A stretch of 64,000 bases of DNA from an uncultured Treponemataceae bacterium (GCA_964576835.1 CAZNXK010000003.1:2044-66043); one strand, 5' to 3'. Numbered from the stretch's first letter, positions 27,778-57,864 are shown. A program made the numbers and translations. Notes: generated from the letters alone by a model not told the origin.

Positions 27778-27847
27778 GTAACTATCTCCCCGGGCATGGC
27801 CCGCGCATGATGTTGATGTCGAGCGACGGCAAGTCGCCTGGATGCGG

Positions 27848-29230: not shown

Positions 29231-29252
29231 GGTAGTCTCCTGTCCTTGGTAC

Positions 29253-34002: not shown

Positions 34003-35229
34003 TTACATGACTTCGCGGATGGTGCCGCGCTCGAGCAGGGCCTTGAGCGTCGCGGCGGGGTTCTTGCGCTTGCCCAGGAGTATCATCGCGGCGATGATGT
34101 ACGGCTTGTAGCTGGCCTCCCGGTAGGTGTCGTCACGGTAGCGGTCGAACACGGAATCGGCGACTTCGCCGGCCTTGCACGAGACGCCGGTTATGTCTGC
34201 GGGCAGGCAGTGCATGTACAGTGCCTGCGCCACCTTAGTGGCGGCACCCTTCGTCAGCTTCATCTTCTGCTCGGTGCACTCCCAGTCCTTGAACTTGGCG
34301 TTGTTGGCGAGGCACTGTTTCTCAAGTTCCTTGAGGCCGCCCTGGTCGCCGGCGTGGAGGAGGGGTACCCGCTGCAGCATGACGTCGTAGGGCGCCCAGC
34401 TCTTGGGATAGACGATGTCGGCGTCCTTGAAGGCCTCGTCCATCGAGTTGACGTGCCTGAAACTACCGCCTGACTCCTTGGCCTGCCTCTTTGACAGCTC
34501 GACGACTTCCGGGATCAGGTCGTAGCCTTCGGGGTGGGCAAGGGAGACTTCCATGCCGAAGCGGCTGGCCAGCCCGATGATGCCCTGGGGTACCGACAGG
34601 GGCTTGCCGTAGGATGGGGAGTATGCCCAGGTCATCGCCAGTTTCTTGCCCTTGAGCTTGTCGACGCCGCCGAAATGGTGAGCCAGGTGCAGGAGGTCGG
34701 CCATGGCCTGGGTGGGATGGTCGATGTCGCTCTGAAGGTTGACGACGGTCGGCCTGTCGGGAAGGACGCCTGCGGCTACGCCTTCGTCCAGTGACTTGGC
34801 CACCTCGCGCTGGTACTTGTCGCCCTCGCCCAGGTACATGTCGTCGCGGATGCCTATGGCCTCGGACAGGAAGCTTATCATGTTGGCCGTTTCGCGGACG
34901 GTCTCTCCGTGGGCGATCTGGCTCTTGCCCTCGTCCAGGTCCTGCACGTAGAGCCCGAGGAGATCGGCCGCGCTCGCGTAGGAGAAGCGCGTGCGGGTCG
35001 AGTTGTCCCTGAAGTTCGAGACGGCTATGCCGGTGTCCCATATCCTGGGGCTGATGTTGGCCTCGCGCATTGCGCGGAGCGCGTCGGCGACGAGGAAGGT
35101 CGCGTCGAGTTCGTCGCGGCTCTTCTCCCAGGTCAGGAGAAAGTCCTTGTGGTACATGCCGATCTTCTTCTTCGACAACTGGTCGATCATCGCCTTGATT
35201 TCATTGACGCCCATATCAGTAACCTCCAT
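34003..35229 (-). CDS. ygeW: YgeW-type knotted carbamoyltransferase
   Basis: 408 aa, near-collinear with E. coli YgeW as I recall it (FRDNSTRTRFSYASA, KSQIAHGETVRETANMISF, DIDHPTQ, TWAYSPSYGKPLSVPQGIIGL, YMHCLPAD). Confidence 0.92.
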   Translation of the reverse strand: MEVTDMGVNEIKAMIDQLSKKKIGMYHKDFLLTWEKSRDELDATFLVADALRAMREANISPRIWDTGIAVSNFRDNSTRTRFSYASAADLLGLYVQDLDEGKSQIAHGETVRETANMISFLSEAIGIRDDMYLGEGDKYQREVAKSLDEGVAAGVLPDRPTVVNLQSDIDHPTQAMADLLHLAHHFGGVDKLKGKKLAMTWAYSPSYGKPLSVPQGIIGLASRFGMEVSLAHPEGYDLIPEVVELSKRQAKESGGSFRHVNSMDEAFKDADIVYPKSWAPYDVMLQRVPLLHAGDQGGLKELEKQCLANNAKFKDWECTEQKMKLTKGAATKVAQALYMHCLPADITGVSCKAGEVADSVFDRYRDDTYREASYKPYIIAAMILLGKRKNPAATLKALLERGTIREVM

Positions 35230-35279
35230 ACGATTTCATCGCGGCCCGCACCGGGCCGTTTTTTCTTGTTTGCTTTTCG

Positions 35280-38147
35280 TTACAACTTGCCCATGGCGCG
35301 AAGGACGCGCTCGGGGGTAAAGGGCCAGACGCGGCACCAGGCGCCGACAGCGTCGTGTATCGCGATTGAAATGGCCGGCGCGGCGCTGTTGAGCGATATC
35401 TCCGAGACGCTCTTGCCGCCGAACGGTCCGACCTCGTCCTCCACCGGCACGAATTCCACATGGAAGTCGTCCGGCACCTCGAAGATCGACGGTATTTTGT
35501 AATCAGTGAAGCCAAGGTTGAGCGGCCGCCCCAGCCCGTCGTACAGCATCTCCTCGTACAGTGAATGGCCGACCGCCTTCATCACGCCTCCGTAGATCTG
35601 GCCCATGGCCAGGCCTGGATTGATCGGCGTGCCGCAGTCCTGGTACGCATGGAAGCGCCTGAGCCTGACCTCCCCCGTGCGGACGTTGACCGCCGCCTCG
35701 ACGAAGTGCGCGCCATACGGGAAGGCGGCGTGCTCGGTCTTGAAGTTGCCGAAGCCGACGAGGTCGCCGTGGCCCTCGCCCTGCGTGGACATGTGCGCCA
35801 GCTTGGCCAGGCTGATCTCGCCCGACTTGCCGCGCACCATGCCGCGCGGGACTATCCTCAGGTCCGCTTCCGCCTCTCCCAGGATGCCCGAGGCCACCTT
35901 GATGCACTTGTCGCGCAGGTCCTCGGCCGCCCTGACCGCGGCGTTGCCCGAGAAATACGTGCCCGAGCTGGCGTAGGCGCCCTTGTCGAATGGAGTGGCG
36001 TCGGTATCGCCTGAGACGACCGTAACATCTGCCATGTCCAGCCCGAGGATCTCGGCGGCTGCCTTGGCGGTTACCGTGTCCAGGCCGGTGCCGAGGTCCG
36101 CGCCGCCCGACAGCATGAGGAGGGTTCCGTCGGTCAGGAGCCTGAGCTCGGCGTTGGCCGAGTCGAGGCCCGGCAGGCCCGAACCCTGCTGGATAATAAC
36201 CGCGCCGCGGCCGGCCTTCCAGTCCGCTCCGGTCGAGGCGGGCTTTGGCTTGTCCCAGGAAAAGGCCTTGCGGCCTCGGGCTATCATCTCGCCGAGTCCG
36301 CACTCGCCCAGGGTGACTGGCGTTCCGGGCCTTCCCTCGCCGAGGCTCCTCAGTATCTCGATGCGGGAACCCGAGCGCACCCGGTTCTTCTCTATGAGGT
36401 CGAGCTGGTCAATGCCGAGTTCCGCGGCCAGTTCGGCAAGCGCGGTCTGGAGACCGAAGGAACCCTTTGGCGCTCCGTAGCCCTGGTAGGCGCCGGCCGG
36501 CGAAAGGTTGGTATAATACGTCTTGACCTCGAAACGGGCGTTGTCGCAGAGGATGAGGGGCAGGCTCTTTGATACCGCGTTCATCGGCACGGTCAGGCAG
36601 TGCTGGCCGTAAGGACCGGTGTCGGCGTCGACTTTCATCTCGATGGCGGTCAGCGTGCCGTCGCGCCTGGCGCCTAGCTTGACGGTGACCTCCATGCCGT
36701 GCCTCGTGCGGCTCGTCATGAATTCCATCCGGCGGTCGTAGCGGAAGAATACCGGCCTGCCCGTGGTCCAGGCCATGTATCCGGCCACGTCCTCGAGGAC
36801 GATGTCCTGTTTTGCGCCGAAACCGCCTCCGACGCGCTCCTTTATGACGCGGACCTTGTTCTCCGGTATGCCTATCGCGCGAGAGACGATTCGGCGCACG
36901 TGCCATGGCACCTGGGTGGAAGCGTGTATGATGAGGCGGCCCGAATCGACCTTGGCGTAGACGACGTGGGGTTCGAGCGGCGTGCACTGCACCCGCGTGC
37001 CTATGTAGGTGCGCTCGATGACGACATCCGCCTCCGAGAATCCCCGATCGACGTCGCCTATGCCGTCGGCAACGCTTGCCGCGAGGTTGCGGTGAGGATC
37101 GGCGTGCAGCGGAAACTGGTAGATGACCGGGTCGTCCCTGCCGTCGCCCTTGACAGAGCTGCCGGCGGGTGGCTCCCCGACGACGTAGCTCACGTCGCCG
37201 TGATGGACTATCGGCGCGCCTGGAGCCTTAGCGTCGGCTATCGACAGCACCGGCTCCAGCACCTCGTACTCGACGACGATGGCCGCGAGCGCGGCTTCGG
37301 CCTCCTCCGGCGTCTCGGCGAGCACGGCCGCCACCCGGTCGCCGACGTGCCGCACCTTGCGCGGGAACATTCGCTGGTCGTAGGGACTTGGCTCGGGAAA
37401 GCCCTGGCCGGCGGTCGTATAGACCCGGTCGGGGCAATTCTCGTGGGTGAGTATCTCCACGACTCCGGGCATCGAGCGAGCCTTGGCTGTGTCCATGCTC
37501 TGTATCCACGCGTGGGCGTGAGGCGACATGAGGAGCCTGAGGTGGCAGGCGCCTTCGTCGACGCGGTCCTCGACGAAGGCGCGCTCGCCGCGTACGAGAG
37601 CCGGAGCGTCGACTTTCTCGCGGTCCTTGCCGACGTGGCGGAGGTCCGGCCTGAATTCCGGCCCTGCCGGCTCGACGTAGGCGGGGTCGGCAAGTCGGCT
37701 GGCCGCGATCCTGGCTGCGTCGTAGAACTGCTCGTAACCGGTGCATCGGCACAGGGTTCCCGACAAGGCGTCCCGCACTTCGACGCGGCCAGGGTTCGGG
37801 CTGCGCTCAAGGAGCTCGTGCAGGGCCAGGACGACAGCGGGCGTGCAGTAACCGCACTGGACGCACGACGCGTCGATGAGGGCCTGCTGCACTATGGACA
37901 GCTTGCGGTTTTTTGAATAGAAGTCGACCGTCAGGACCGCGCTGCCGTCTGCCTGCGCCGCGAGCACCTGGCAGGAATTGACGAGATGCCCGTCGAGGAG
38001 GACAGAGCAGAGGCCGCATGAACCCTCGCCGTCGCAGCCGTTGCGTACCGATACGATGCCTTTTCGCCTCAGGGCGTCGCGGAGGCTCTCCCCGGGCTCG
38101 CATTCCCACGAGACCCTGCGTTGGTTGAGCGTGAAATTGACCTTCAT
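35280..38147 (-). CDS. xdhD: XdhD-type molybdopterin hydroxylase with fused N-terminal [2Fe-2S] domains
   Basis: ATG 38147 after GGAGGA, giving 955 aa (I recall about 956 aa for E. coli XdhD). It has 2Fe-2S cysteine motifs (GCDGEGSCGLC; CRCTGY) followed by aldehyde-oxidase/xanthine-dehydrogenase Moco domains. Confidence 0.88.
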   Translation of the reverse strand: MKVNFTLNQRRVSWECEPGESLRDALRRKGIVSVRNGCDGEGSCGLCSVLLDGHLVNSCQVLAAQADGSAVLTVDFYSKNRKLSIVQQALIDASCVQCGYCTPAVVLALHELLERSPNPGRVEVRDALSGTLCRCTGYEQFYDAARIAASRLADPAYVEPAGPEFRPDLRHVGKDREKVDAPALVRGERAFVEDRVDEGACHLRLLMSPHAHAWIQSMDTAKARSMPGVVEILTHENCPDRVYTTAGQGFPEPSPYDQRMFPRKVRHVGDRVAAVLAETPEEAEAALAAIVVEYEVLEPVLSIADAKAPGAPIVHHGDVSYVVGEPPAGSSVKGDGRDDPVIYQFPLHADPHRNLAASVADGIGDVDRGFSEADVVIERTYIGTRVQCTPLEPHVVYAKVDSGRLIIHASTQVPWHVRRIVSRAIGIPENKVRVIKERVGGGFGAKQDIVLEDVAGYMAWTTGRPVFFRYDRRMEFMTSRTRHGMEVTVKLGARRDGTLTAIEMKVDADTGPYGQHCLTVPMNAVSKSLPLILCDNARFEVKTYYTNLSPAGAYQGYGAPKGSFGLQTALAELAAELGIDQLDLIEKNRVRSGSRIEILRSLGEGRPGTPVTLGECGLGEMIARGRKAFSWDKPKPASTGADWKAGRGAVIIQQGSGLPGLDSANAELRLLTDGTLLMLSGGADLGTGLDTVTAKAAAEILGLDMADVTVVSGDTDATPFDKGAYASSGTYFSGNAAVRAAEDLRDKCIKVASGILGEAEADLRIVPRGMVRGKSGEISLAKLAHMSTQGEGHGDLVGFGNFKTEHAAFPYGAHFVEAAVNVRTGEVRLRRFHAYQDCGTPINPGLAMGQIYGGVMKAVGHSLYEEMLYDGLGRPLNLGFTDYKIPSIFEVPDDFHVEFVPVEDEVGPFGGKSVSEISLNSAAPAISIAIHDAVGAWCRVWPFTPERVLRAMGKL

Positions 38148-38962
38148 ACGATTTCCTCCGCGGAGTGCAAGGTATCCGCCAAGAGGGCTGCGCCGCGCAG
38201 GCACTTGTATTCGGCGCTGCCCCGCTGGTCGCCGATCGCGAGCAGCAGGGGTAGGGCGGCATTTTCGATGTCGGCCTTCGGTGGAAGCGGCTTGCCCTCG
38301 AACAGAGCGGCCAGGTCAGCCCTGAGCGACGCGTGGGGGCCGAAGCCTCCGATGGCCACCCTGAGCCCTGTCACTCGGCCGCCATCGAGTGAGAATGCGC
38401 AGGCCGCCGTAGCCGTGGCGATGTCGCAGGCGGTGCGGCTTGCCCTGAGACTCGCCGCCCGAATGCCCGCGCCATCCGCAGGCTTGGCGCCGAGAGCCAC
38501 GGCGACCGAAAGCACGAGCCCACCCGGTTTCTCGAGCCATTCAACCAGCGGGATGGAGGCGGCCGATTGCCCGCGTTCCTGATATTCGACCGATGCTCCG
38601 AGTACCAGGAGGATAGGGGCCAGGCTCGAGCACGATTTGTTCGCGCCAAGGTTGCCGCCGACCGTGGCCCGGTTGCGCGTGTTGCGGTTGGCCATGGATG
38701 CGGCGGCTGCCTTGAGAACCGCCGGTACCGATCCTGACTCGATCAATTCCTGGAACCGGACGCCAGCGCCGATGCGGAGCGTTCCGCCCAGCCGTTCTAT
38801 GGCGCAGGGCACGGCCCGGGAAATATCCACCATACGTTCGGGCTTGTCGCGCGCGTCGAAAGCGAGCGCGAAGGTACCGCCGGCAAGTGCGCCTGCTCCG
38901 GGAAAAGCCAGCAACTCAAGCGCCTCGTCGACGCTGGCCGGTCTGAAATATTCTTTTACCAT
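38144..38962 (-). CDS. ygfM: FAD-binding subunit of molybdopterin dehydrogenase (YgfM-like)
   Basis: The true start is MVKEYFRPASVDEA at 38962. The upstream 155 codons of ORF 38144..39427 are an Arg-rich out-of-frame shadow of the amidohydrolase gene. It has CO-dehydrogenase flavoprotein-like motifs and an ATGA overlap with xdhD. Confidence 0.8.
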   Translation of the reverse strand: MVKEYFRPASVDEALELLAFPGAGALAGGTFALAFDARDKPERMVDISRAVPCAIERLGGTLRIGAGVRFQELIESGSVPAVLKAAAASMANRNTRNRATVGGNLGANKSCSSLAPILLVLGASVEYQERGQSAASIPLVEWLEKPGGLVLSVAVALGAKPADGAGIRAASLRASRTACDIATATAACAFSLDGGRVTGLRVAIGGFGPHASLRADLAALFEGKPLPPKADIENAALPLLLAIGDQRGSAEYKCLRGAALLADTLHSAEEIV

Positions 38963-40368
38963 GCGGCTTGTATCCCCGCTTTCGTTAAGAGGCGCTTGGC
39001 GCAGCGATTGGCTTCGTCGCGTATGCGCTCCTCGTTGGCGCCCGCAAGGCGGCCGCCCTTGACGACGAACTTTCCGTTGACTATCAGATGGTCGACGCCA
39101 TGGTTGTACCCGGAGAACAGGAGCGCGGCGGCAGGATCGGAGAGAGCGCCCGCGTACTCGAGCTTCATTACGTCGAACATGGCTATGTCGGCGAGGGCGC
39201 CTGACTCCATCGTGCCGGCGTCGTCGTAGCCCAGAATGCGGGCGCCGCCGACCGTCGCCAGCCCGAGCACCTCGCGGGCGTTGATGCCCGCGGAGCCGTA
39301 GCGCACACGCTGCAGGAGCAGCGCCTGTCTGGCCTCGCCGAGCATGTCGGAGGCGTCGTTCGAAGCCGACCCGTCCACCGCCAGTCCGACCGAGACGCCT
39401 CGGTCGAGCATTTCGCGCACCCGGCATATGCCGGAGCCCAGTCTCATGTTCGAGGAAGGGCAGTGGGCGACACCCGTTCCGGTGCGGGCCAGCAAGTCGA
39501 GTTCCTCGTCGTTGAAGTGTATGCCGTGGGCGTACCAGACGTCAGGGCCAATGAACCCGCAGTCTTCCATTACCTTGAGCGGCCTGCGGCCGAGCGTTTT
39601 CACGCAGAAGTCAGTCTCGTCTGCGGTCTCCGCGAGGTGCGTGTGGAGCCTGGCTCCGTATTTCCGCGCCAGGTCGGCCGCGTCGCGCATCGAGCGTTCC
39701 GATACGGAGAACGGCGAGCATGGGGCCAGGGCAACGCGCCGCATCGAATCAGGCGCCCGGTCGTGGTACTTCCGGAGGGCTTCCTCGCTCTGGGCCAGGA
39801 TCTCGTCCTCGTCCTGCACAACGCTGTCGGGCGGAAGACCGCCGTCCTTCTTCGAAAGCGACATGGAGCCGCGGGTCGGCGCGAATCGGAGGCCTATCTC
39901 GGCGGCCGCCTTGAACTGGATGCCGGGCAGGTCGCCAGTGAAGCTGCGGGGGTACAGGTAGTGGTGGTCGGTGGACAGCGTGCAGCCTGTCTTGGCGAGT
40001 TCCGCCATCGCGAGCATGCTTGACCAGTAGACCGCTTCCTCGTCGATGCCTTTCCAGACTTCGTAGAGGTAGACGAGCCAGTCGAAGAGCTTGGCGTCCT
40101 GGACTGCCGGCACGTTCCGTGTCAGCGTCTGGTAGAAATGGTGGTGCGTGTTCACCAGCCCGGGCATGACGACGTGGGCGCTTGCGTCGACGACTTCGCA
40201 GCTATCCTGCAAGCCGGCTGGTACGGCTAGGTTCTTGCCGATCTTCTTGATGCGCTTGCCTTCAATCAGCACGTCGACGCCCGCCAGGTCCTCGCTTGCG
40301 GAGCCGGCATTGGCGCCTGCCCCGCAGCGAGGTCGGACCACCCTGAAGCAGTCCTTGAGCAATATCAC
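38956..40368 (-). CDS. Amidohydrolase-superfamily deaminase (8-oxoguanine deaminase / AtzB-like, COG0402)
   Basis: 470 aa with a GTG start. It carries NTHHHFYQTLTR and HTHLAET metal-ligand motifs and AVDGSASND. It is a paralogue of SsnA. Confidence 0.7.
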   Translation of the reverse strand: MILLKDCFRVVRPRCGAGANAGSASEDLAGVDVLIEGKRIKKIGKNLAVPAGLQDSCEVVDASAHVVMPGLVNTHHHFYQTLTRNVPAVQDAKLFDWLVYLYEVWKGIDEEAVYWSSMLAMAELAKTGCTLSTDHHYLYPRSFTGDLPGIQFKAAAEIGLRFAPTRGSMSLSKKDGGLPPDSVVQDEDEILAQSEEALRKYHDRAPDSMRRVALAPCSPFSVSERSMRDAADLARKYGARLHTHLAETADETDFCVKTLGRRPLKVMEDCGFIGPDVWYAHGIHFNDEELDLLARTGTGVAHCPSSNMRLGSGICRVREMLDRGVSVGLAVDGSASNDASDMLGEARQALLLQRVRYGSAGINAREVLGLATVGGARILGYDDAGTMESGALADIAMFDVMKLEYAGALSDPAAALLFSGYNHGVDHLIVNGKFVVKGGRLAGANEERIRDEANRCAKRLLTKAGIQAAW

Positions 40369-41822
40369 CTGAGTACCTCGGCGTTGAATTCGTTGATAAT
40401 GACGTCCAGGTCAGCTGCCTGGGCGCGGAGTCCGCCCCAGTAATTGCGGTGGTCGTCCCACTGGGCGCGCAGTTCGTCCACGCCCTTGCCCAGCTGCTCC
40501 ACCCAGCTGAAGTACTTGAGCTGGTGTATCCGGCGTTTGTCGACCTGTGACAATTCCATGACATGGTCGACGGATTGGCCCTGGATGCGGTCAAAGTCCT
40601 TGTCGGCCTGGCGCTGGGTATACGCGCCGCGCTCGGCGTTCATCTCCGCGATCCGGCTGCCGTACATGTCCATGGAATCGGTGAACATGGTGAACACCAC
40701 GTCCGTCTCGTCCATTTCGTAGTACTTGGCCATTTTAATGGCGGCGACGAGGTTGCCGACGCCGGATATGCCCATCAGGTTCAGGCGGGCGATGGTTGCT
40801 GCGTCGACGCCCATCTCGGCCAGTACCTTGTGGCCGGCTGGTTCGTTGAACAGGCGGATAAAGCGGATCGGCAGCTCGTCATCCACGCCTATCGCTGCGT
40901 CGGTCTCGCGCATGTTGTGGATCCACGGGATGTGCTTGTCGCCGATGCCTTCGATGCGGTGGTCGCCGAAACCGTTTTCCAGGATGGTGGGGCACTGCAG
41001 GGCCTCGGCTACGCCGACCTTTGAACCGGGAAAGTGGTCGCGGATGTAGCTGCCCGAGCCCATGGTTCCCGCAGAGCCTGATGACAAGACTGCGCCGCCG
41101 ACATGGTCGCCGGGTTTGGCGATTTTCTTGAAGACTTCGGCCATGGCAGGGCCGGTGACGTTATAGTGCCACAGGTGGTTGGGCAGCTGGTCGAACTGGT
41201 TGAAAATCACGCATTCTGGCCGGTTTTTCTCGATGTCTATGCACTTGTCGAAAATTTCCTTGACGTTGGACTCGCAGCCCGGTGTTGCGATGACTTCCTC
41301 GGCCATGGTCTTGAGCCAGGTGAAGCGCTCCTTGCTCATGCCGGCGGGGAGGATGGCCACCGACGGGCAGGACAGGAGGCGGGAGATGTATGCTCCGCCA
41401 CGGCAGTAATTGCCGGTGCTCGGCCAGACGGCCTTCTTGCTCGTCGGATCAAAACGGCCGGTCACCAATTCGGGGAGGAGGCAAGACAGCGCCGCGCCGA
41501 CCTTGTGAGCGCCGGTGGGGAACCACTTGCCGACGAGGCCGACGATGCGGGCCTTGGTGCCGGTGATGGAGCGCGGAATCTCGAAGTAGTTGACGTCGCC
41601 AAAGGTGCCACCCTTTTCCTTGGGCTCGTTGTGCCAGTTGACGCGGAACAGATTGCGGCTGTGTACATCCCACAGTCCTATGCTCTTGAGTTCGTCCTTG
41701 TATTTCTGGGGAATCTTGGACGGGTCGCGCATCTGCTCGTAGGTCGGAAGGATGATGCCCTTCTCCTTGCAGCGCTGTATGTTCTTCTTGCGTGCCTTCT
41801 CGTCAATCCTTAAATCGATCAT
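40365..41822 (-). CDS. Fold-type II PLP-dependent enzyme (CysK/TrpB-like) with long C-terminal extension, function unknown
   Basis: Start MIDLRIDEK at 41822, 485 aa. The candidate PLP lysine is in FPTGAHKVGAA and the glycine loop in SSGSAGTMGSG. The ~130-aa C-terminal helical region is not recognised. Confidence 0.65.
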   Translation of the reverse strand: MIDLRIDEKARKKNIQRCKEKGIILPTYEQMRDPSKIPQKYKDELKSIGLWDVHSRNLFRVNWHNEPKEKGGTFGDVNYFEIPRSITGTKARIVGLVGKWFPTGAHKVGAALSCLLPELVTGRFDPTSKKAVWPSTGNYCRGGAYISRLLSCPSVAILPAGMSKERFTWLKTMAEEVIATPGCESNVKEIFDKCIDIEKNRPECVIFNQFDQLPNHLWHYNVTGPAMAEVFKKIAKPGDHVGGAVLSSGSAGTMGSGSYIRDHFPGSKVGVAEALQCPTILENGFGDHRIEGIGDKHIPWIHNMRETDAAIGVDDELPIRFIRLFNEPAGHKVLAEMGVDAATIARLNLMGISGVGNLVAAIKMAKYYEMDETDVVFTMFTDSMDMYGSRIAEMNAERGAYTQRQADKDFDRIQGQSVDHVMELSQVDKRRIHQLKYFSWVEQLGKGVDELRAQWDDHRNYWGGLRAQAADLDVIINEFNAEVLR

Positions 41823-41854
41823 GTGTCGCTCCTTATTAGTCGAGAAAAAAATTT

Positions 41855-41969
41855 GCCACGGAGGCACGGAGTCACGGAGCAAGAGAAAGAGGGCAAGGAT
41901 AGAGAAAGATATACTTTATCTACCATTTTTCTGCTCTCTTCATCTCCGTGTCTCCGTGCCTCCGTGGTC
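41855..41969. repeat. CACGGAGN palindromic repeat element (best-preserved copy)
   Basis: Left arm GCCACGGAGGCACGGAGTCACGGAG (41855-41879). Right arm CTCCGTGTCTCCGTGCCTCCGTGGTC (41944-41969). The core is 64 nt and A/T-richer. Confidence 0.8.
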
Positions 41970-41979
41970 TGATTCATCA

Positions 41980-43182: not shown

Positions 43183-43241
43183 CAGTTACTCCTTCGCCTA
43201 AAGCATCCTTGGAACTACGGAAAAGAAAGACAAGAAAATCA

Positions 43242-43415
43242 GACCACGGAGACACGGTGTGCCGCGAGACTCGCAGCGCCGCAAGGGGGCTCTGGGGGAT
43301 CGCGTACGTTTACGTACGAGCCCCAAGCGGCTACCGTTAGGGGGGATACCCCCCTAATACCCCCTGTGATTCTGCGCACTGCTCGAATCACACCGTGTCT
43401 CCGTGCCTCCGTGGC
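43242..43415. repeat. CACGGAGN palindromic repeat element with a long structured core
   Basis: Left arm GACCACGGAGACACGGTGT (43242-43260). Right arm ACACCGTGTCTCCGTGCCTCCGTGGC (43390-43415). The core holds nested hairpins (GGGGCTC...GAGCCCC, CGTACGTTTACGTACG, GGGGGGATACCCCCC, GTGATTC...GAATCAC). Confidence 0.8.
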
Positions 43416-43441
43416 ACGCTTCATTCCGTAGCCTCTTCCTC

Positions 43442-50500: not shown

Positions 50501-52785
50501 CTGGCCGCCTCCTGATCCGTTCCCGCCGGCAGCGGCTCGGTCATGAAAAGCATGGCCTTCTCCGGAGTCATCGGCAGGTCGTGCACCGATGGCGCCTCAG
50601 GGCGGGCCGCCTTGAGCGCGTCGAGCACGGCAAAGTAGCCGGCGATTCCGTACATCAGTGGCGGCTCGCCTACCGCCTTGGAATTGGCGACAGCCTTGGG
50701 GTTTGGACGGGTGAAAAATTCGACGTCCATCGCCGGCATGAAGTGCGCGTCCGGAAGCTTGTAGGTGGACAGCGTATCGGACAGGAGCCGACCTTCGTCG
50801 TCGAACTTGAGTTCCTCGAGCGCCGCCCAGCCAAGACCCTGGGCAAAGGCGCCTTCTATCTGGCCCATGTCGACGAGCGGATCAAGCGACTCGGCTATGT
50901 CGTGGACGATGAAGGCGTCGTCGAAACGGTAGCTGCCGCGCAGCACGTCGAGCGTCGCGGTGACGACGGCGCATCCGTAGACGTGGTACAGGAACGGCGT
51001 GCCGTGTTCGGCCTTCAAGTCGTAGTGGAGGCCCGGCGTCGCGTAGAATCCGTGGGCCGAGAGGTCGACCCGCCTCTCGTACGCCATGCCTGCCAGGTCC
51101 GCGAACGTCAGCCCGCCTGACCCGGCGCCCCTTGTGACTACCAGGCCGTCGACGATGTCCAGAGACTCCGGGGATGCGCCGAGCTTCTCGGCCGCAAGTG
51201 CGACAAGACGCTTGCGAATCTCGAGGCAGGCGACGCGGGCGGCCATCGCGTTGATGTCCGCTCCGGAACTGGCCGCCGTCGCCACCGTGTTTGCCACGGT
51301 CGTCGTCCTCGTGCTCTCGATGCGCACCTTCCCGATAGGCGCGCCAAGCGTCCTGGCCGAGACGAGGGCGATTTTTCTGCCGACGCCCTGGCCCATCTCT
51401 ATGGCGCCGGTGCTCACCGACACCGAGCCGTCGTTGAACACGTGGACGAGCGCGCCGCCCTGGTTGAGCATGATTTTGGTGAAACTGATGCCGAAGCACA
51501 GGGGGAAGACGGCGGCTCCGCGCTTCTGCGCCTTGTTCGCGCGGTTGAAGGCCGCTATGCCTGCGCGGAGCTCCTTCCATCGGGCTTTCTCGAGGCAGCG
51601 ATCGAATGTCTCCCTGGCGCGGACGTCTTCCATCTTCATGCCGTAATGGGACATGTCTCCCTCCGACAGCAGGTTCTTGCGCTGTATGTCCACGGGGTCC
51701 ATCCCGAGTGCCCTGGCTGCCTTCTCTATGGCGCTTTCGATGACAAAGAGGCCCTGTGGCCCGCCAAAACCCCTGAACGCGGTGAAGGGCACGAGGTTTG
51801 TCCGGCACATCGTCCCGGTGGCGCGGACGTTGGGGATGTGGTAGGCGCCGGCCGCGTGGAAGAGGGTGCGCGGCAGTATCGCGGGCGACAGGTCGGTCGC
51901 GGCGCCCGCGTTCTGGTAATAGTCCGCCTCGAATGCCAGGATGGTGCCGTCCTTCTTGAGGCCTATCTTGTAGTCCGACGAGTACGGGTGGCGCTTGCCT
52001 GTGCTGACCATGTCGTCGCGTCGGTTGAGGTAGAGTTTGACGGGAAGGCCTGTCTTGACAGCACCGAGCGACGCGAGCGCCGCCCAGCCGGAAGCCTGGT
52101 CTTCCTTGCCGCCGAAGGCGCCGCCCAGGCGCCTTGTCTCCACCTCGACCAGATTCTTCGGCAGGCCGAGAACCCTGGCGATGATGGACTGCACTCCCGA
52201 GGGACTCTGGGTTCCGGAGAATACCCTGACGCCGCCCGAGTCCTCGGGGTAGGCGATGGCGCCCTGGGTCTCGAGGTAGACGTGTTCCTGGCCGCCCGAT
52301 TCGACGCGCCCGGATACGACGACGTCGCAGGAGGCGAAGGCGGCTTCAGGATCGCCTGTCACCTGGGTCCGCGGCGACAGGATGATGTCGCCCCGCCTGA
52401 ACGCGACGCGCGGGTCGACGACGACGGGCAGGTCCTGCCTCCCGGTAATGGCGACGCGGGCGGCCGAACGTCGGGCAACCGACCGTGACGGGGCGAGCAC
52501 GAGGGCGAGCACCTGTCCCCGGAAGTGCCACTCGCCTGTCGCGAGCATCTGCTCGTCTGCCACGGCGGTGCCCAGCTGGTTGTCGCCGGGTACGTCGGCC
52601 GCAGTCAGCACGTGGACGCCAGGCGCGTAGGCCAGCGCGGCCGACGTATCGAGGCCCGTGAAGCTGCCATGGGCCGACGGCGAGCAGACGATCGCCGCGT
52701 GGAGCATGCCGGAATTCTCGGGCATGTCGTCGATGTATGTCGTCTTGCCCATCACGTTGAGTACGGAATCGGGGTTGCGTTTCAT
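50497..52785 (-). CDS. xdhB: Xanthine dehydrogenase molybdopterin-binding large subunit
   Basis: The true start MKRNPDSVLNVMGKTTYIDDMP is at 52785 (ATGA overlap with xdhA), 762 aa. Moco hydroxylase motifs are present (GGAFGGKE, FRGFGGPQG). The upstream 383 codons of ORF 50497..53934 are a shadow frame. Confidence 0.88.
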   Translation of the reverse strand: MKRNPDSVLNVMGKTTYIDDMPENSGMLHAAIVCSPSAHGSFTGLDTSAALAYAPGVHVLTAADVPGDNQLGTAVADEQMLATGEWHFRGQVLALVLAPSRSVARRSAARVAITGRQDLPVVVDPRVAFRRGDIILSPRTQVTGDPEAAFASCDVVVSGRVESGGQEHVYLETQGAIAYPEDSGGVRVFSGTQSPSGVQSIIARVLGLPKNLVEVETRRLGGAFGGKEDQASGWAALASLGAVKTGLPVKLYLNRRDDMVSTGKRHPYSSDYKIGLKKDGTILAFEADYYQNAGAATDLSPAILPRTLFHAAGAYHIPNVRATGTMCRTNLVPFTAFRGFGGPQGLFVIESAIEKAARALGMDPVDIQRKNLLSEGDMSHYGMKMEDVRARETFDRCLEKARWKELRAGIAAFNRANKAQKRGAAVFPLCFGISFTKIMLNQGGALVHVFNDGSVSVSTGAIEMGQGVGRKIALVSARTLGAPIGKVRIESTRTTTVANTVATAASSGADINAMAARVACLEIRKRLVALAAEKLGASPESLDIVDGLVVTRGAGSGGLTFADLAGMAYERRVDLSAHGFYATPGLHYDLKAEHGTPFLYHVYGCAVVTATLDVLRGSYRFDDAFIVHDIAESLDPLVDMGQIEGAFAQGLGWAALEELKFDDEGRLLSDTLSTYKLPDAHFMPAMDVEFFTRPNPKAVANSKAVGEPPLMYGIAGYFAVLDALKAARPEAPSVHDLPMTPEKAMLFMTEPLPAGTDQEAAR

Positions 52786-54254
52786 GCGAGGAGCTCCTCC
52801 TCGAGCATGAGCCGGGGCCACAGCCTCGTGAATGCCGCCCACGCCAGCCTTTCGAGCAGGCGCTTGCGATACACCGACGAGCCGCGGACGTCGCTCATCG
52901 GGCTGCCCGCGGCGGAGGCCAGGGAGCCGACCTCGCGGGCGAGAGCCGCCGAGGGTTTCCTGCCTGCCATGGCCTTCTCCACGTCCAGGAGCCGCAACGG
53001 GGTCGCCGCCACGCCTCCGGCGGAATACCTGGCCGCGGCTATCGTCCCGTCCGCCGCCATGCGGACGGCTACGGCGCAATTGACGGTGGCGATGTCTAGC
53101 CGTTCCCTCTTGCTCGCCTTCTCGAAAGCGAAGCGGGTCCAGCCGCCTTCGAACTCTATCCCGACCACCCGCTCTCCCTGGCGCAGGTCTATCTTCTTGT
53201 AGCCAAGGAAAAAGTCCTCGAGCGGTACCGAGCGTCGCCCCTTTTCTCCACCCGACATCTCGACTATGGCGCCGAGGGCAATCAGCATGGCCGTCATGTC
53301 CGCTATCGGGGACGCGTTGACGATGTTGCCGGCAAGCGTAGCGCGGTTGCGTATCGGCGGCGACGCTATCGAGAGTTCGCTGTCCTCTATGCCAGGCGCG
53401 GCTCCTCGGACGATGGGCGAGCCGAAGAAGTCGGTGACGGTCGCCGCTGGCCCGACGCTCACGAAGGCGAACTTGCCGGGCCGCGTACTCTCTGGCGGCA
53501 GTTCGACTATCCTTCTGGCTTCCGATCCCGAGTCGGTGAACGACGGCGCAAGCCCGTCTTCGGGGTCTGGATTCCGTACGAAGTAATCGGTGCCGCCGCC
53601 CAGCACCGGACCGGCAGTGTCGCCGTGGCCGGAGGCGGCAAGAGCGGGCGTGGACGCTTTTCCGGCCGGTTTCGGGGGCTTGGCCATCGCGGCCGCGAGG
53701 CCGGCGGGCAGCACGCGCCTCGAAGCGAGGACCGCGAGCCTCGGACCGAGCCCGAGCGGCAGGTCTGCGAACTCGAGCGCGAGCCTGGATGCGGCGCGGC
53801 GGATCGAGCCGTAGCCCGTGCAGCGGCATAGGTTGCCCTCGACGGCTACCATGGCCGCGATCGGGTCGACCCTGGCACCCGCGACGAGGTAGCCGGTCAG
53901 CGCCAGAACGAAACCAGGCGAGCAGAAGCCGCACTGACTGGCACCTTCATCGAGCATCGCTTCCATCACTGGCGTCAGGCCGGCTGATGAGAGCCCCTCG
54001 ATGGTCACCAGGTGCCTGCCGTCCAGTTCGCCCATCGCCAGCGTGCACGAGGTGACGGATCGCCACTCGGTGTCGCCTGCCGGGCCTGAGCCGCCGAGGA
54101 GGACGAGGCATGCGCCGCAGTCGCCTTCGCGGCAACCTTCCTTGGTTCCCTTGAGTCCCGCCTCGTTGCGTATCCAGTCGAGGGACAGTGCTTCCTCCCG
54201 GACGGTGATTTCGAGGTCTGTCTCGTTGAGCCTGAACCTGATGTTTCGTGTCAT
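52782..54254 (-). CDS. xdhA: Xanthine dehydrogenase small subunit ([2Fe-2S] + FAD-binding domains)
   Basis: 490 aa with the plant-type ferredoxin motif CREGDCGACLV, the second cluster CGFCSPG...CRCTGY, and then an FAD-binding CODH-flavoprotein-like domain. Confidence 0.88.
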   Translation of the reverse strand: MTRNIRFRLNETDLEITVREEALSLDWIRNEAGLKGTKEGCREGDCGACLVLLGGSGPAGDTEWRSVTSCTLAMGELDGRHLVTIEGLSSAGLTPVMEAMLDEGASQCGFCSPGFVLALTGYLVAGARVDPIAAMVAVEGNLCRCTGYGSIRRAASRLALEFADLPLGLGPRLAVLASRRVLPAGLAAAMAKPPKPAGKASTPALAASGHGDTAGPVLGGGTDYFVRNPDPEDGLAPSFTDSGSEARRIVELPPESTRPGKFAFVSVGPAATVTDFFGSPIVRGAAPGIEDSELSIASPPIRNRATLAGNIVNASPIADMTAMLIALGAIVEMSGGEKGRRSVPLEDFFLGYKKIDLRQGERVVGIEFEGGWTRFAFEKASKRERLDIATVNCAVAVRMAADGTIAAARYSAGGVAATPLRLLDVEKAMAGRKPSAALAREVGSLASAAGSPMSDVRGSSVYRKRLLERLAWAAFTRLWPRLMLEEELLA

Positions 54255-54453
54255 GACCGGTCCTTTTCTGAAACAGTATCGACGACGAAATGCGGACCGC
54301 CCGATGCGGCCCGTACGTGCAGATGCCGCGTATGGTATTCGGTATGTATACCGGAATTGTACGACGTAGCCCTTTCAAAGGCAATGAGGAAGTGACTGTC
54401 TGTTGATTCGGGGGTGGAGTACCGGGGGCGCCGCCGGATTCGGCCTGAGAGCG

Positions 54454-56190
54454 TCAAGGCATTTTAAATAGTGATACCTGTTCGAACGTGTCAACGTCGA
54501 CGAGACCCTTGTCGGTGATCTTGAGCGAGGGGATCACCGGCAGGGCCATGAACGAGAGGGTCATGAGGGGTGAGGCTCCCGGCATGCCTTCCATCCTGAA
54601 AAAATCTTCGAATAGAGCCAGCTTGGCGATGACTTCGTCAGCCGGCCTGTCGCTCATGAGGCCCGCGACAGGCAAGGCCAGTTCTGCAAGGACCGCGTCG
54701 CCGTCGGTGATGACGAAACCGCCCTTCATGGCGTTGAGCCTTCGTGCTGCCTTGAATATAGACGCGTCGTCCACGCCGGCGATGATCATGTTGTGCGAGT
54801 CGTGGCTGACGGTGGAACCCATCGCTCCGCGTTTCATCCTGAGGCCACGGATGAAGCCTTTGCCGATTGACCCCGAGCCGGTATGCCGCTCTATCACGAA
54901 AATCTTGATGATGTCGCGTGTCGTGTCGGAGACGCAAAGCCTTTCGGCTACTTTCGGGCGTTCCAGCGATGCGCCCGTGATGATCGAACCTGGCTGTGCC
55001 TCTATCACCCTTGCCAGGCCGCCCTCGTCGGGGATGCGGAAGTCTTTCTCCTCGAGCCATTTGATGTTGACCGAGTCGCGGAGCGGAGGCACGAGTACCG
55101 AACCGCCCATCTTCTCGTAGCCGGCAGTCGGAACTCCGCCCTTGGCGATGATTTCGCCTGCCTTGAACACGATGTCCGCGCGGAAGTCAGCTGGATCGGA
55201 AAAAGCGACGAGGTCGGCCTTGTAGCCGGGCGCTATCGCTCCCGACCGCCTGAGGCCATAGTAGAGGGCGGGGTTGTGGCACGCCATCCTGAGAGCGTCG
55301 AGTAGCGGCACGCCGCCGGAGACGAGCGCCCGCAGCGCGGCGTCTATGTGGCCTTCGGTGGCTATGTCGTTCGGGTGGCGGTCGTCGGTGCACAGCATCA
55401 TGCGGCGGATTGTCTCGCCGTTCATCGCGGGTATAAGGTTTTCCAGGTCGCGGGCGCTCGATCCGAGTCGGGCCATGATCCACATGCCCTTGCCGAGTTT
55501 GGCGAGCGCTTCCTCGGGGGTGGTGGCTTCGTGGTCGCTGCGGATCCCCGAAAGGGCGTACGCCGACAGGTCGCGGCCGGACAGCCCCGGCGCGTGGCCG
55601 TCAATGGCTTTGCCCGCTTCCCAGAACAGGGAGATCTTGTCCATGATACGCGGGTCGGCGGCCAGGACGCCGGGGTAGTTCATCACCTCGCCGAGGCCCA
55701 GGACCCGCTCGTCCCGCGCGAAACGGGCCAGGTCGGAGGCGAAGAGCGAAGCCCCTGCCGTATCGAAGTGCGTCGCGGGCACGCAGGAAGGAACCATGAT
55801 GTAGACATCCAGGGGAATGCCGTCGGAAGCGCGGAGCATCCAGTTGATGCCATCGTGGCCGAGTACGTTCGCTATCTCGTGCGGGTCGGCGATGATTGCC
55901 GTGGTACCGCGGGGCGCGACCATCCTCGCGTATTCGACCGGGGACAGAAGGCTCGATTCTATGTGGACATGCGCGTCGACCAGGCCCGGGCAAAGGTACT
56001 TGCCTCCGAGGTCCAGAGTCCTTCTGGCCTCGAGCCCGTCATTGACGCCGACTATGTAGCCCCGGTACACCGACACCACGGCCCCGTCGACGATACGCCC
56101 GCGAAAAAAATCCACCATGCGGCAATCGATGAGGTTGATATCCGCGGGTGTCCGTCCCCGGGCAACGTCGATGTAGTCGGTTTTAAGCAT
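54454..56190 (-). CDS. ade: Adenine deaminase
   Basis: 578 aa. GLVDAHVHIESS and TAIIADPHEIANV motifs and the overall length are typical of Ade (AdeC). Confidence 0.9.
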   Translation of the reverse strand: MLKTDYIDVARGRTPADINLIDCRMVDFFRGRIVDGAVVSVYRGYIVGVNDGLEARRTLDLGGKYLCPGLVDAHVHIESSLLSPVEYARMVAPRGTTAIIADPHEIANVLGHDGINWMLRASDGIPLDVYIMVPSCVPATHFDTAGASLFASDLARFARDERVLGLGEVMNYPGVLAADPRIMDKISLFWEAGKAIDGHAPGLSGRDLSAYALSGIRSDHEATTPEEALAKLGKGMWIMARLGSSARDLENLIPAMNGETIRRMMLCTDDRHPNDIATEGHIDAALRALVSGGVPLLDALRMACHNPALYYGLRRSGAIAPGYKADLVAFSDPADFRADIVFKAGEIIAKGGVPTAGYEKMGGSVLVPPLRDSVNIKWLEEKDFRIPDEGGLARVIEAQPGSIITGASLERPKVAERLCVSDTTRDIIKIFVIERHTGSGSIGKGFIRGLRMKRGAMGSTVSHDSHNMIIAGVDDASIFKAARRLNAMKGGFVITDGDAVLAELALPVAGLMSDRPADEVIAKLALFEDFFRMEGMPGASPLMTLSFMALPVIPSLKITDKGLVDVDTFEQVSLFKMP

Positions 56191-56436
56191 TTCTTGTCAC
56201 TTCGAACCCGGGGAAGCCGGGTAGTTGGCATTGTTACCGGATTCTTGTTCTTTGTCAAATACCCAATTCCGGGGAGGCCGACGGGTTGCGTCCGCCGAAG
56301 GGCCAAATATTGAAGGAAAAAAAATCCATTGCCAAAATGGAAAAGGGAGCGTACGCTCACGACGATCATCGATCCTCCCCATTCTCAGTGTAGGATGGGG
56401 TAGGACGGACCAAAACCACCTTTAGGAGGCTGTAAG

Positions 56437-57723
56437 TTGGAACAGTTATTCAAGCTTAAAGCGCACGGCACGACGGTGCGGACAGAGATCATGGCCGGAA
56501 TCACGACGTTCATGACGATGGCCTACATCCTCGCCGTCAACCCCGGCATCCTGAGCGCGACGGGCATGCCCGCCGGCGGCGTCTTCACGGCGACAGCGCT
56601 CTCCGCCATGATCGCGACCATCATCATGGCCCTGATCGCCAACCTGCCGATCGCCCTGGCCCCGGGCATGGGACTCAACGCGTTCTTCGCGTTTACCGTC
56701 GTGCTCGGCATGGGCTATTCATGGCAGCTCGCCCTTACCGCGGTATTCGTAGAAGGCATCATCTTCATACTGATGTCGCTCTTCAACATCCGTGAGGCCA
56801 TCATCAATTCCATCCCGGCCAACATCAAGAAGGCTGTGGCGGTAGGCATCGGCCTGTTCATCGCGTTCATCGGCTTCCAGAACGCCGGCATCGTCGTCAA
56901 CAACGACGCCACCCTCGTCAGCCTCGGCAGCATCACCAAGGGCCCGGCCCTCGTGGCGCTCATCGGCCTCGTGATCATGGGCGTCCTGCTCGCGTTCAAG
57001 GTCAAGGGCGCCCTGCTCATCGGCATAATCGCCACAACGATAGTAGGCATACCCTTCGGCGTCACCACCGTTCCCCAGGGCTGGAACCCGATAAGCGCTC
57101 CCGCGGCGCCGATACTCTTCCAGTTCCAGTTCGACAAATTGCTGACGCTCGACTTCTTCGTCGTCATGTTCACGTTCCTCTTCGTCGACATCTTCGACAC
57201 TATCGGCACGCTGCTCGGCGTGGCCACCCAGGCTGGGCTTATCGACAAGAACGGCCAGATCCCGAAGGTCAAGCAGGCGCTTCTCGCCGACGCCATCGGC
57301 ACAGTCGCCGGCGCCTGCCTTGGCACCTCGACCGTGACTTCGTACGTCGAGAGCGCTTCCGGCGTCGCCGAGGGCGGACGCACGGGCCTCACGTCGCTGA
57401 CGACCGGCATACTGTTCGGTCTCGCGCTGTTCCTGTCGCCGCTGTTCCTGCTCGTTCCGGGCGCCGCTACCGCACCGGCACTCATAATCGTCGGCCTCTT
57501 CATGCTGAGCCCGGTCAAGGAACTGAACCTGACCGACTTCACTGAGGCGATACCCGCTTTCCTGACGATGATCATGATGCCGCTGACGTACAGCATAGCC
57601 GAGGGCCTCGTCTTCGGTATCCTGTCCTACATCCTGCTCAAGGCGCTTACGGGCAAGTACAAGGACATTTCCGTGGTCACCTGGATAGTCGGCGGATTCT
57701 TCATCCTGAAGCATTTGCTGTAA
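56437..57723 (+). CDS. NCS2/AzgA-family purine (adenine/guanine/hypoxanthine) permease
   Basis: 428 aa with a TTG start 7 nt after AGGAGG. The N-terminus EQLFKLKAHGTTVRTEIMAGITTFMTMAYI is the family hallmark. Confidence 0.9.
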   Translation: MEQLFKLKAHGTTVRTEIMAGITTFMTMAYILAVNPGILSATGMPAGGVFTATALSAMIATIIMALIANLPIALAPGMGLNAFFAFTVVLGMGYSWQLALTAVFVEGIIFILMSLFNIREAIINSIPANIKKAVAVGIGLFIAFIGFQNAGIVVNNDATLVSLGSITKGPALVALIGLVIMGVLLAFKVKGALLIGIIATTIVGIPFGVTTVPQGWNPISAPAAPILFQFQFDKLLTLDFFVVMFTFLFVDIFDTIGTLLGVATQAGLIDKNGQIPKVKQALLADAIGTVAGACLGTSTVTSYVESASGVAEGGRTGLTSLTTGILFGLALFLSPLFLLVPGAATAPALIIVGLFMLSPVKELNLTDFTEAIPAFLTMIMMPLTYSIAEGLVFGILSYILLKALTGKYKDISVVTWIVGGFFILKHLL

Positions 57724-57755: not shown

Positions 57756-57864
57756 GCCACGGAGACACGGAGACACGGAGAAGGATATATTAAAGATGGG
57801 GTGAAAGGAAGAATCGGATTTCCCGAACTATTCCCTTCACCCTGTCCCCCTCTGTGTCTCTATG
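57756..57864. repeat. CACGGAGN repeat element with a degenerate right arm, between convergent genes
   Basis: Left arm GCCACGGAGACACGGAGACACGGAG (57756-57780). An internal hairpin GGGGTGAAAGG/CCCTTCACCC spans 57798-57842. The right arm is decayed to CTCTGTGTCTCTATG (57850-57864). Confidence 0.65.

Follow-up and report, generated by a model that had tools for sequence, protein, structure and literature searches.

The 64,000-nt stretch of DNA analyzed here, called the window (GCA_964576835.1, CAZNXK010000003.1:2044-66043, from an uncultured Treponemataceae bacterium), carries between positions 34003 and 57723 a purine catabolic island that, judged from the homology of its proteins, probably codes for an entire pathway leading from free purines to a three-carbon acid. 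At its centre lies the reductive urate pathway. Two steps of that pathway would be taken over by other enzymes: an allantoinase-like hydrolase would replace HyuA, and a pair of pyridoxal phosphate (PLP) enzymes, here called PLP2 and PLP1, would replace the diaminopropionate ammonia-lyase YgeX, while kinase and maturation genes would be encoded elsewhere. The pathway to which the island belongs is known, and the island's core is not new; the substitutions proposed at the HyuA and YgeX steps appear to be. No description of such a variant (allantoinase-like enzyme for HyuA, PLP2 and PLP1 for YgeX, no local kinase or maturation genes, free-living spirochaetes) was found in the pathway papers searched.

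The pathway was worked out in E. coli and Clostridium and reconstituted enzyme by enzyme in 2025 by Li et al. (bioRxiv 10.1101/2025.05.19.654654, PMC12507026) and by Liu et al. (bioRxiv 10.1101/2025.04.24.650524). XdhD/YgfM reduces urate to 2,8-dioxopurine, which YgfK dearomatizes reductively; SsnA cleaves the product's six-membered ring, and HyuA converts the resulting hydantoin to 2,3-diureidopropionate. One ureido group of this compound is cut by phosphorolysis by YgeW, yielding carbamoyl phosphate from which YqeA makes ATP. YgeY takes off the second ureido group to give 2,3-diaminopropionate, which YgeX converts to pyruvate and ammonia (PMC12507026; 10.1101/2025.04.24.650524). The sole disagreement between the two studies is over which ureido group leaves first (PMC12990295). 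An earlier reading of the window made from the sequence alone (the sequence-only reading) had described the individual reactions as largely unassigned and had suggested that this cluster could help assign them. The former statement is outdated, and the latter has been overtaken for the core steps: these were solved in 2025, so the cluster is no longer needed to assign them.

The core of the pathway is readable in the window because orthologues of the reconstituted enzymes are present and an insertion of XdhD is kept. YgeW, XdhD, YgeY, SsnA and YgfK all score above their NCBIfam equivalog cut-offs and are 43-66% identical to the E. coli (MG1655) proteins ( Table 1 ). Glu606 of XdhD (E. coli numbering), reported by Li et al. 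as a determinant of 2,8-dioxopurine formation (PMC12507026), is retained together with the surrounding insertion in the window protein and in its spirochaete orthologues, and an alignment shows both to be absent from XdhA-type subunits. The genes for YgfK and SsnA are adjacent, with an ATGA overlap at 45978-81. The candidate FAD-binding subunit is more distant (TIGR03312, 72.8 bits against a cut-off of 241.5; 28% identity to E. coli YgfM) and occupies the position that ygfM has in E. coli. On orthology, the steps from urate to ureidomethyl-hydantoin and from 2,3-diureidopropionate to diaminopropionate can be assigned with good confidence. The sequence-only reading, which had recognized an anaerobic purine/urate catabolic island from its ygeW-xdhD-ygfM-ssnA-ygfK-ygeY set, was right in its gene identities and in its overall interpretation.

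The same reading had reported ygeX, yqeA, yqeB, yqeC and selD as absent from the window, and a tblastn search confirmed this. With E. coli queries, no match at E≤1e-3 to YgeX, YqeA, YqeB, YqeC, MocA, SelD, YgeV, UacT or XanQ was found in the window plus 10 kb of contig on each side (about 84 kb). Since the search of the flanks was negative as well, the variant topology that had been proposed is genuine as far as the data reach. It is also real and conserved in related spirochaetes. An 11-gene order (xdhB, allantoinase-like gene, ygfK, ssnA, ygeY, PLP2, PLP1, 8-oxoguanine deaminase, ygfM, xdhD, ygeW) is kept at 58-94% protein identity in Spirochaetae bacterium HGW-3 (HGW-Spirochaetae-3; locus L007) and in loci L008 and L012, and two Marispirochaeta genomes (L041 and L043) have a related order into which a three-subunit xanthine dehydrogenase (XDH) is inserted. 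The list of additional genes given earlier (an 8-oxoguanine-deaminase-like hydrolase, an allantoinase-like hydrolase and two other PLP enzymes) was correct, but the PLP pair is not incidental: it is a conserved two-gene module that apparently stands in for ygeX in many phyla.

PLP1 and PLP2 are not orthologues of YgeX, to which neither gave a blastp match at 1e-5; hhalign probabilities were 7% for PLP1 and 19% for PLP2. PLP1 retains the PLP lysine (GAHK107) and the STGN loop (the Asn loop for the substrate carboxylate). Its matches to CysK and cystathionine beta-synthase (CBS) are distant, the best Protein Data Bank match having an E-value of 2.7e-18. Its AlphaFold2 model is poor (pLDDT 63.7, with only close homologues in the alignment), and Foldseek places it with CysK/CBS at template-modelling (TM) scores of about 0.4-0.6, which adds little to the result of the sequence search. 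An identification as the cysteine synthase CysK/CysM was rejected because the TIGR01139 score, 77 bits, is far from the cut-off of 351. Membership in the OrtB-type thiolases or the SbnA-type enzymes was rejected as well, there being no OrtB match and only a weak SbnA match (34 bits) in NCBIfam. PLP2 yields a better model (pLDDT 87.5) with a ThrC-like fold, and Foldseek matches it to threonine synthases at TM scores of about 0.8. Its PLP lysine, Lys103, is conserved. The Arg of the ThrC motif NPxR(L/I)EGQKT, which we take to bind phosphate, is replaced by an invariant Thr202. Together with sub-threshold family scores (best 186 bits against 303; TIGR00260, 138 against 167), this replacement led us to reject PLP2 as a threonine synthase.

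PLP1 belongs to a tight family, the best 120 database clusters being 76-100% identical, that is now named either "cysteine synthase" or "pyridoxal-phosphate dependent enzyme". It comprises 291 representative clusters at E≤1e-30 in a 50%-identity library, with at least 594 matching stretches in species-representative genomes, and it occurs in Spirochaetota, Betaproteobacteria, Chloroflexota, Bipolaricaulota, Synergistota, Halanaerobiales, Acidobacteriota and Actinomycetota. The window PLP1 is 76-80% identical to its betaproteobacterial counterparts (Rhodoferax, Rhodocyclaceae; L009, L011, L014-L018, L092-L094) and 59% identical to those of Marispirochaeta (L041/L043). This closer relationship to Betaproteobacteria suggests that the PLP module may have been transferred between them and groundwater spirochaetes.

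We labelled 80 PLP1 loci, with 10 kb on each side, by tblastn using window and E. coli proteins, and clustered all open reading frames (ORFs). PLP2 lies within 10 kb of PLP1, mostly directly beside it, in 37 of the 80. No YgeX orthologue is present in any of the 80; the matches to YgeX are partial (21-37% identity) and all fall on PLP2 or PLP1 themselves. Loci were taken as full-length if they extend 8 kb or more to either side of PLP1; there are 44 of these, and purine or ureide genes occur in 34 of them. By gene, the 44 include PLP2 in 23 cases, YgeW-like genes in 20, XDH subunits in 17, hydantoinase-like genes in 15, YgeY in 10, carbamate kinase and 8-oxoguanine-deaminase-like genes in 9 each, and SsnA and YgfK in 8 each. 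The enzymes that could remove the carbamoyl groups vary by phylum, and PLP1 is the fixed partner, a constancy partly built in by its use as the search query. Spirochaetes, Halanaerobiales and Acetomicrobium have YgeW and YgeY; Bipolaricaulota have two YgeW-like genes and carbamate kinase. In Chloroflexota and Actinomycetota, a YgeW-like gene is paired with carbamate kinase, and PLP2 is present. In Betaproteobacteria, an AmaB/allantoate-amidohydrolase-type carbamoylase and a CN-hydrolase take this place, accompanied by L-serine ammonia-lyase and a TRAP transporter.

To look at the same relationship from a gene other than PLP1, we carried out a profile search for SsnA and inspected six locus contexts, a small sample with few independent loci. 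Proteobacterial clusters whose SsnA and YgfK are 71-72% and 63-70% identical to those of E. coli have one of two endings, either PLP2 and PLP1 (L092-L094, arranged as YqeC, M20 peptidase, PLP2, PLP1) or YgeX (YgeW-YgeX-YgeY in L095; YgeW-YgeX-HyuA-YqeA in L099), and never both. Because the two endings do not co-occur in these equally related SsnA clusters, PLP2 and PLP1 can be read as a non-orthologous replacement for YgeX. That they form an unrecognized and widespread terminal module of anaerobic purine and ureide catabolism, possibly with different chemistry (through serine, racemization or cleavage of a ureido amino acid), is a proposition to which we give about an even chance.

No orthologue of the D-hydantoinase HyuA was found in the window, where the sole cyclic amidohydrolase candidate is the allantoinase-like protein (27% identity to E. 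coli HyuA; D-hydantoinase family TIGR02033, 204 bits against a cut-off of 393). Its gene keeps the same position in L007, L008 and L012. A swap at this step is chemically plausible, since the presumed substrate, the pathway intermediate 5-ureidomethyl-hydantoin, is longer than allantoin (5-ureidohydantoin) by one methylene.

The genes that would feed the pathway lie at its upstream end and next to PLP1. The molybdopterin subunit XdhB has mammalian xanthine oxidoreductase (XOR) and Rhodobacter capsulatus XDH chain B as its best Protein Data Bank matches. In an alignment to rat XOR, the residues corresponding to E802, R880, F914, F1009, T1010 and E1261 (bovine/rat numbering), presumably the catalytic and substrate residues of the mammalian enzyme, are all conserved. 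Since all six of these residues are kept, and despite sub-cut-off family scores, XdhAB is very probably a true XDH of the Rhodobacter/eukaryote type. A homologue of the 8-oxoguanine-deaminase-type enzyme directly follows PLP1 in 17-18 of the 80 PLP1 loci; by homology, it would deaminate an amino-oxopurine to urate or xanthine.

Taken together, these assignments suggest the following route. Purine bases would be imported by the permease, and adenine deaminase would convert adenine to hypoxanthine; the XdhAB-type XDH would oxidize hypoxanthine and xanthine to urate, and the 8-oxoguanine-deaminase-type enzyme would feed a deaminated amino-oxopurine into the same pool. XdhD/YgfM would then reduce urate to 2,8-dioxopurine, YgfK would dearomatize it, and SsnA would open the ring to give ureidomethyl-hydantoin, which the allantoinase-like enzyme may open in turn to 2,3-diureidopropionate. 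YgeW would remove one carbamoyl group as carbamoyl phosphate and YgeY would hydrolyze the other, leaving 2,3-diaminopropionate for PLP2 and PLP1 to convert to pyruvate and ammonia, perhaps directly, perhaps via serine or racemization. A kinase or transferase encoded elsewhere would use the carbamoyl phosphate, and genes for maturation of the molybdenum/selenium cofactor, if such a cofactor is used, would likewise be located elsewhere. Enzymes of the CysK type act mostly on L-amino acids and typically catalyze beta-replacement. Since the intermediates of the pathway are assigned the R configuration (Liu et al., 10.1101/2025.04.24.650524), one of the two PLP enzymes may racemize or carry out a beta-replacement and the other eliminate. 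The L-serine ammonia-lyase next to the module in Betaproteobacteria hints at serine as an intermediate.

Several observations weigh against this proposal. Two PLP enzymes are invoked for a step that YgeX performs alone; both are just remotely related to YgeX, and their sequences do not fix their substrates. The allantoinase-like enzyme has low identity to HyuA, and the YgfM-like protein falls far under the cut-off of its family. No carbamate kinase was detected by tblastn within the roughly 84 kb, so that the ATP-yielding step is not accounted for locally, and YgeX could be encoded elsewhere in the genome. The SsnA-anchored contrast comprises few independent loci, many Chloroflexota PLP1 loci have no recognizable purine neighbour, and in some phyla PLP1 directly follows XDH maturation-type genes (YqeB-like, DUF364, nucleoside triphosphatase (NTPase)). 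The last arrangement bears on the main rival explanation, in which the core is read correctly, a YgeX encoded elsewhere carries out the last step, and PLP2 and PLP1 serve the sulfur/selenium chemistry of the molybdenum hydroxylases, for example by making or mobilizing a selenium or sulfur donor for the cofactor. PLP1 is indeed CysK/CBS-like, and in L026, L036, L055 and L076 it comes directly after an XDH operon and accessory genes, namely YqeB/XdhC-like and DUF364/DUF4213 "heavy-metal chelation" genes (neither found in L055) and an NTPase, with MocA further upstream in L036, L055 and L076. In the 84 kb around the window, yqeB, yqeC and selD were not found, and some maturation function might come another way. 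We nevertheless consider this explanation unlikely. The 10-kb surroundings of the betaproteobacterial PLP2-PLP1 pair contain two carbamoylases, L-serine ammonia-lyase and a TRAP transporter but no XDH; PLP1 stands beside YgeW-like and carbamate kinase genes in Chloroflexota, Actinomycetota and Bipolaricaulota, in the first two with PLP2 as well; and any XDH subunit at all is found in just 17 of the 44 full-length loci. The presence of either YgeX or PLP2 and PLP1, never both, in closely related SsnA clusters also fits a replacement better.

It is also conceivable, if quite improbable, that PLP1, PLP2 or both act one step before YgeX. The substrate would then be a mono-ureido intermediate, either albizziin or 3-amino-2-ureidopropionate, from which beta-elimination or beta-replacement would release urea or carbamate together with aminoacrylate or serine, and the lower pathway would be reordered relative to E. 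coli. Several PLP1 clusters of Chloroflexota and Actinomycetota have a YgeW-like gene and carbamate kinase and no YgeY, so that no hydrolase is evident for one of the ureido groups; the L-serine ammonia-lyase of Betaproteobacteria again hints at serine, and beta-replacement is typical of the CysK family. However, YgeW and YgeY are both retained in the window and in its spirochaete relatives, and between them they already yield diaminopropionate, and the two YgeW-like genes of Bipolaricaulota suffice for both ureido groups. We give hardly any credence to a reading of the island as incomplete or in decay, or as serving the older "selenium metabolism" or selenate-reduction role, instead of as a working purine pathway. 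Although ygeX, yqeA, yqeB, yqeC, mocA and selD were not found locally, and families are still named "selenium metabolism-linked" or "putative selenate reductase subunit", the twelve genes are intact and tightly coupled, and their order is kept at 58-94% identity in several genomes. The selenate-reductase label is older than the 2025 reconstitutions, and purine feeder genes flank the cluster.

Compared with the E. coli cluster (ygeW-ygeX-ygeY-hyuA-yqeA / ygfK-ssnA-ygfM-xdhD), the window has orthologous XdhD, YgfK, SsnA, YgeW and YgeY, with ygfM (in the window, a ygfM-like gene) directly before xdhD, ygfK directly before ssnA, and purine permease and deaminase genes adjacent. In E. coli, ygeX lies between ygeW and ygeY, whereas in the window PLP2 and PLP1 come after ygeY. 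The window has an allantoinase-like gene instead of a HyuA orthologue and a ThrC-like plus CysK-like pair instead of YgeX; it lacks yqeA, yqeB, yqeC, mocA and ygeV within about 84 kb of contig, has a two-subunit Rhodobacter/eukaryote-type XDH rather than the XdhABC type, and has an 8-oxoguanine-deaminase type in place of GuaD. Its genes form a single co-oriented 12-gene array in a free-living groundwater spirochaete with about 63% G+C. Swaps of pathway steps by non-orthologous enzymes have a parallel in the uricolytic clusters of Clostridioides difficile and Clostridium sporogenes (YgfK for UacX; YgeW and YqeA for UacY), and some PLP1 clusters (Acetomicrobium, L023) also have a UacX-like PydA homologue, but the swaps in the window fall at the HyuA and YgeX steps. 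With the fold-type-II PLP enzyme YgeX/DpaL, PLP1 and PLP2 share PF00291, the PLP lysine and a neighbourhood beside YgeW and YgeY. They differ in being two genes rather than one, and PLP1 is extended by about 75 residues at its N terminus and about 100 at its C terminus. The window XDH shares with the Rhodobacter capsulatus and mammalian enzymes its two-subunit layout (FeS+FAD, 490 aa; Mo, 762 aa) and its catalytic and substrate residues, but it scores under the NCBIfam equivalog cut-offs and no XdhC-type chaperone gene is nearby. The clostridial "xanthinase" fermentation (Rabinowitz) is likewise an oxygen-independent purine route using XDH; there, however, the xanthine ring is hydrolyzed to give glycine, whereas the SsnA/YgfK/YgeW/YgeY set of the window marks the reductive 2,8-dioxopurine route.

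The window comes from a 108-kb contig of a groundwater metagenome (ENA ERZ909574, contig k127_163898, PRJNA292723). Close relatives of its proteins carry the names Spirochaetales, Spirochaetae bacterium HGW-3 and HGW-7, Rectinemataceae and Treponema sp. GWB1_62_6. On the source contig, the window is closely followed by a fliS gene; relatives, fliS and source together indicate an uncultured free-living spirochaete as host. An ORF list, family scans and independent gene calls on the source contig agree on twelve intact consecutive minus-strand genes running from 54254 to 34003 ( Table 1 ), as the sequence-only reading had described from xdhA to ygeW. The six four-nucleotide start/stop overlaps quoted there, ATGA or GTGA, are all present, appearing on the plus strand as TCAT at 52782-85, 50497-500, 45978-81, 44659-62 and 38144-47 and as TCAC at 40365-68. 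Two more junctions (8-oxoguanine deaminase/ygfM and allantoinase-like/ygfK) are overlaps or very short gaps. The array is interrupted, as had been stated, only by two repeat-bearing gaps, PLP2-PLP1 (157 nt, 41823-41979) and ygeY-PLP2 (259 nt, 43183-43441), and by a short xdhD-ygeW spacer, whose length is 50-65 nt depending on the ygeW start. The adenine deaminase and divergent purine permease placed upstream were likewise recovered (TIGR01178, above cut-off; PF00860). The island is surrounded by genes for the use of rhamnose and arabinose, for a 2-oxoacid dehydrogenase complex and Nqr, and for housekeeping. That the island as a whole had been acquired horizontally was considered and rejected, its G+C content and third-codon-position G+C being the same as in the surroundings. 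Promoter and terminator scans inside the operon were at chance level, with weak promoter-like sites only before ade and xdhA, and between 31 and 59 kb Rfam detected no riboswitch of the purine, xanthine or any other class.

Table 1. Genes and intergenic hairpins of the purine catabolic island, in window coordinates.
Feature	Position	Strand	Evidence
ygeW, knotted carbamoyltransferase	34003-35229 (called start 35214)	-	NF005538 679.5 bits (cut-off 453); TIGR03316 655.9 (cut-off 500); 66% identity to E. coli YgeW
xdhD, Mo/Fe-S subunit of urate-to-2,8-dioxopurine reductase (DOPDH)	35280-38147	-	TIGR03313 1192.7 bits (cut-off 1101.9); 51% identity to E. coli XdhD
ygfM-like FAD-binding subunit	38144-38962	-	PF00941 and PF03450; ATGA overlap with xdhD
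8-oxoguanine-deaminase-type amidohydrolase	38956-40368	-	NF006055 609 bits (cut-off 532); GTGA overlap with PLP1
PLP1, 485-aa fold-type-II PLP enzyme, CysK-like, uncharacterized family	40365-41822	-	distant CysK/CBS matches
CACGGAG-repeat hairpin in PLP2-PLP1 gap, followed by T-run	41850-41972	-	predicted dG -66 kcal/mol, z-score -10.1; terminator-like match
PLP2, 400-aa threonine-synthase-like PLP enzyme, Cys-rich N-terminal segment (possible zinc ribbon)	41980-43182	-	PF00291 225.8 bits
CACGGAG-repeat hairpin in ygeY-PLP2 gap	43238-43420	-	predicted dG -101 kcal/mol, z-score -7.3
ygeY, M20 amidase	43442-44662	-	NF009555 495.6 bits (cut-off 321); 49% identity to E. coli YgeY
ssnA, ring-opening amidohydrolase	44659-45981	-	NF005540 510.7 bits (cut-off 444); 52% identity to E. 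coli SsnA
ygfK, Fe-S flavoenzyme	45978-49121 (called start 49082)	-	TIGR03315 989.3 bits (cut-off 835.3); 43% identity to E. coli YgfK
Allantoinase/dihydroorotase-like cyclic amidohydrolase	49106-50500	-	TIGR03178 338.1 bits (cut-off 357.85)
xdhB-type molybdopterin subunit (762 aa), conventional XDH	50497-52785	-	TIGR02965 763.9 bits (cut-off 849.5)
xdhA-type fused [2Fe-2S]/FAD subunit (490 aa)	52782-54254	-	TIGR02963 288.8 bits (cut-off 467); Fer2, Fer2_2, FAD_binding_5, CO_deh_flav_C
Adenine deaminase (adenine to hypoxanthine)	54454-56190	-	TIGR01178 574 bits (cut-off 472.5); promoter-like site 56258-56230
NCS2/AzgA-type purine permease, divergent	56437-57723	+	PF00860 166 bits; 36% identity to E. 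coli GhxQ

Three intergenic gaps contain CACGGAG(N)CACGGAG units arranged as long inverted repeats (41857-41966, 43245-43413 and 57758-57780, with a weaker match at 6391-6405). The window has 10 matches, against 0.29 expected, and T-runs follow the two repeat hairpins inside the operon. Because the hairpin at 41.9 kb is long, Rfam gave matches there, all of them weak and to microRNA families. The repeat is confined to contigs of this strain and is missing from related genomes with the same gene order, and it therefore looks like a lineage-specific element resembling repetitive extragenic palindromes or miniature inverted-repeat transposable elements (REP/MITE-like).

Other PLP1 loci have gene contents of interest in their own right. 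L011, L015, L016 and L017 (Betaproteobacteria and a bin labelled Enterobacteriaceae) contain a compact cassette of a hydantoinase/carbamoylase-family amidase, a CN-hydrolase, PLP2, PLP1, an L-serine ammonia-lyase of the Fe-S type and a TRAP transporter; XDH, SsnA and YgfK are missing from the 10 kb around it. This cassette could serve to take up a diureido or ureido acid that other microbes release. In the Bipolaricaulota loci L039, L063, L071 and L077, two adjacent YgeW-like genes and carbamate kinase lie beside PLP1, while YgeY and PLP2 are both missing; phosphorolysis might there cleave the two ureido groups alike, doubling the ATP yield. The cluster type of L026, L036, L055 and L076 comprises YgeY, a YgeW-like gene, PLP2, MocA, a three-subunit XDH, a membrane protein, DUF364/DUF4213, a YqeB-like gene, an NTPase, PLP1 and an 8-oxoguanine-deaminase-like gene, of which L055 and L026 have parts only. 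SsnA, YgfK and HyuA are not found within 10 kb in this type, which represents either another purine route or an indication that PLP1 is linked to XDH maturation. Halanaerobium kushneri ATCC 700103 (L073), a cultured isolate, has PLP1, PLP2, a PuuR-like regulator, YgeY (70% identical to the E. coli protein), a YgeW-like gene and both a TRAP transporter and a permease of the xanthine type, and is a tractable organism for the PLP module.

Two further features of the window lie outside the island. The region 25300-30581 encodes a 2-oxoacid dehydrogenase complex of the pyruvate/acetoin type, in which a single 825-aa ORF combines the alpha and beta parts of E1; the E3 (27848-29230) and E2 (29253-30581) genes lie beside it on the same strand, and a DeoR regulator is located at 30592-31347. 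Neither NCBIfam nor Pfam gave a match to a 158-aa ORF between polA and fliS (63205-63681), although it is conserved on nine contigs.

The reductive urate pathway is medically topical, with interest in urate removal in the gut and in engineered probiotics. The gene-neighbourhood survey of Li et al. coloured any PF00291 neighbour "YgeX" (PMC12507026), and when surveys count in this way a distinct two-enzyme ending would be overlooked. If our inference of a replacement is wrong, the cluster is simply a correctly recognized member of a known pathway. If PLP2 and PLP1 do close the pathway, annotation and censuses that require ygeX (or ygeX, hyuA and yqeA) would miss many urate degraders outside Bacillota and Enterobacteria, and a large, strongly conserved PLP enzyme family would gain a function. 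Percudani has raised the question of whether the pathway found in the gut has an ancient origin or arose recently as an adaptation to the gut (PMC12990295), and that question would gain evidence for an environmental origin.

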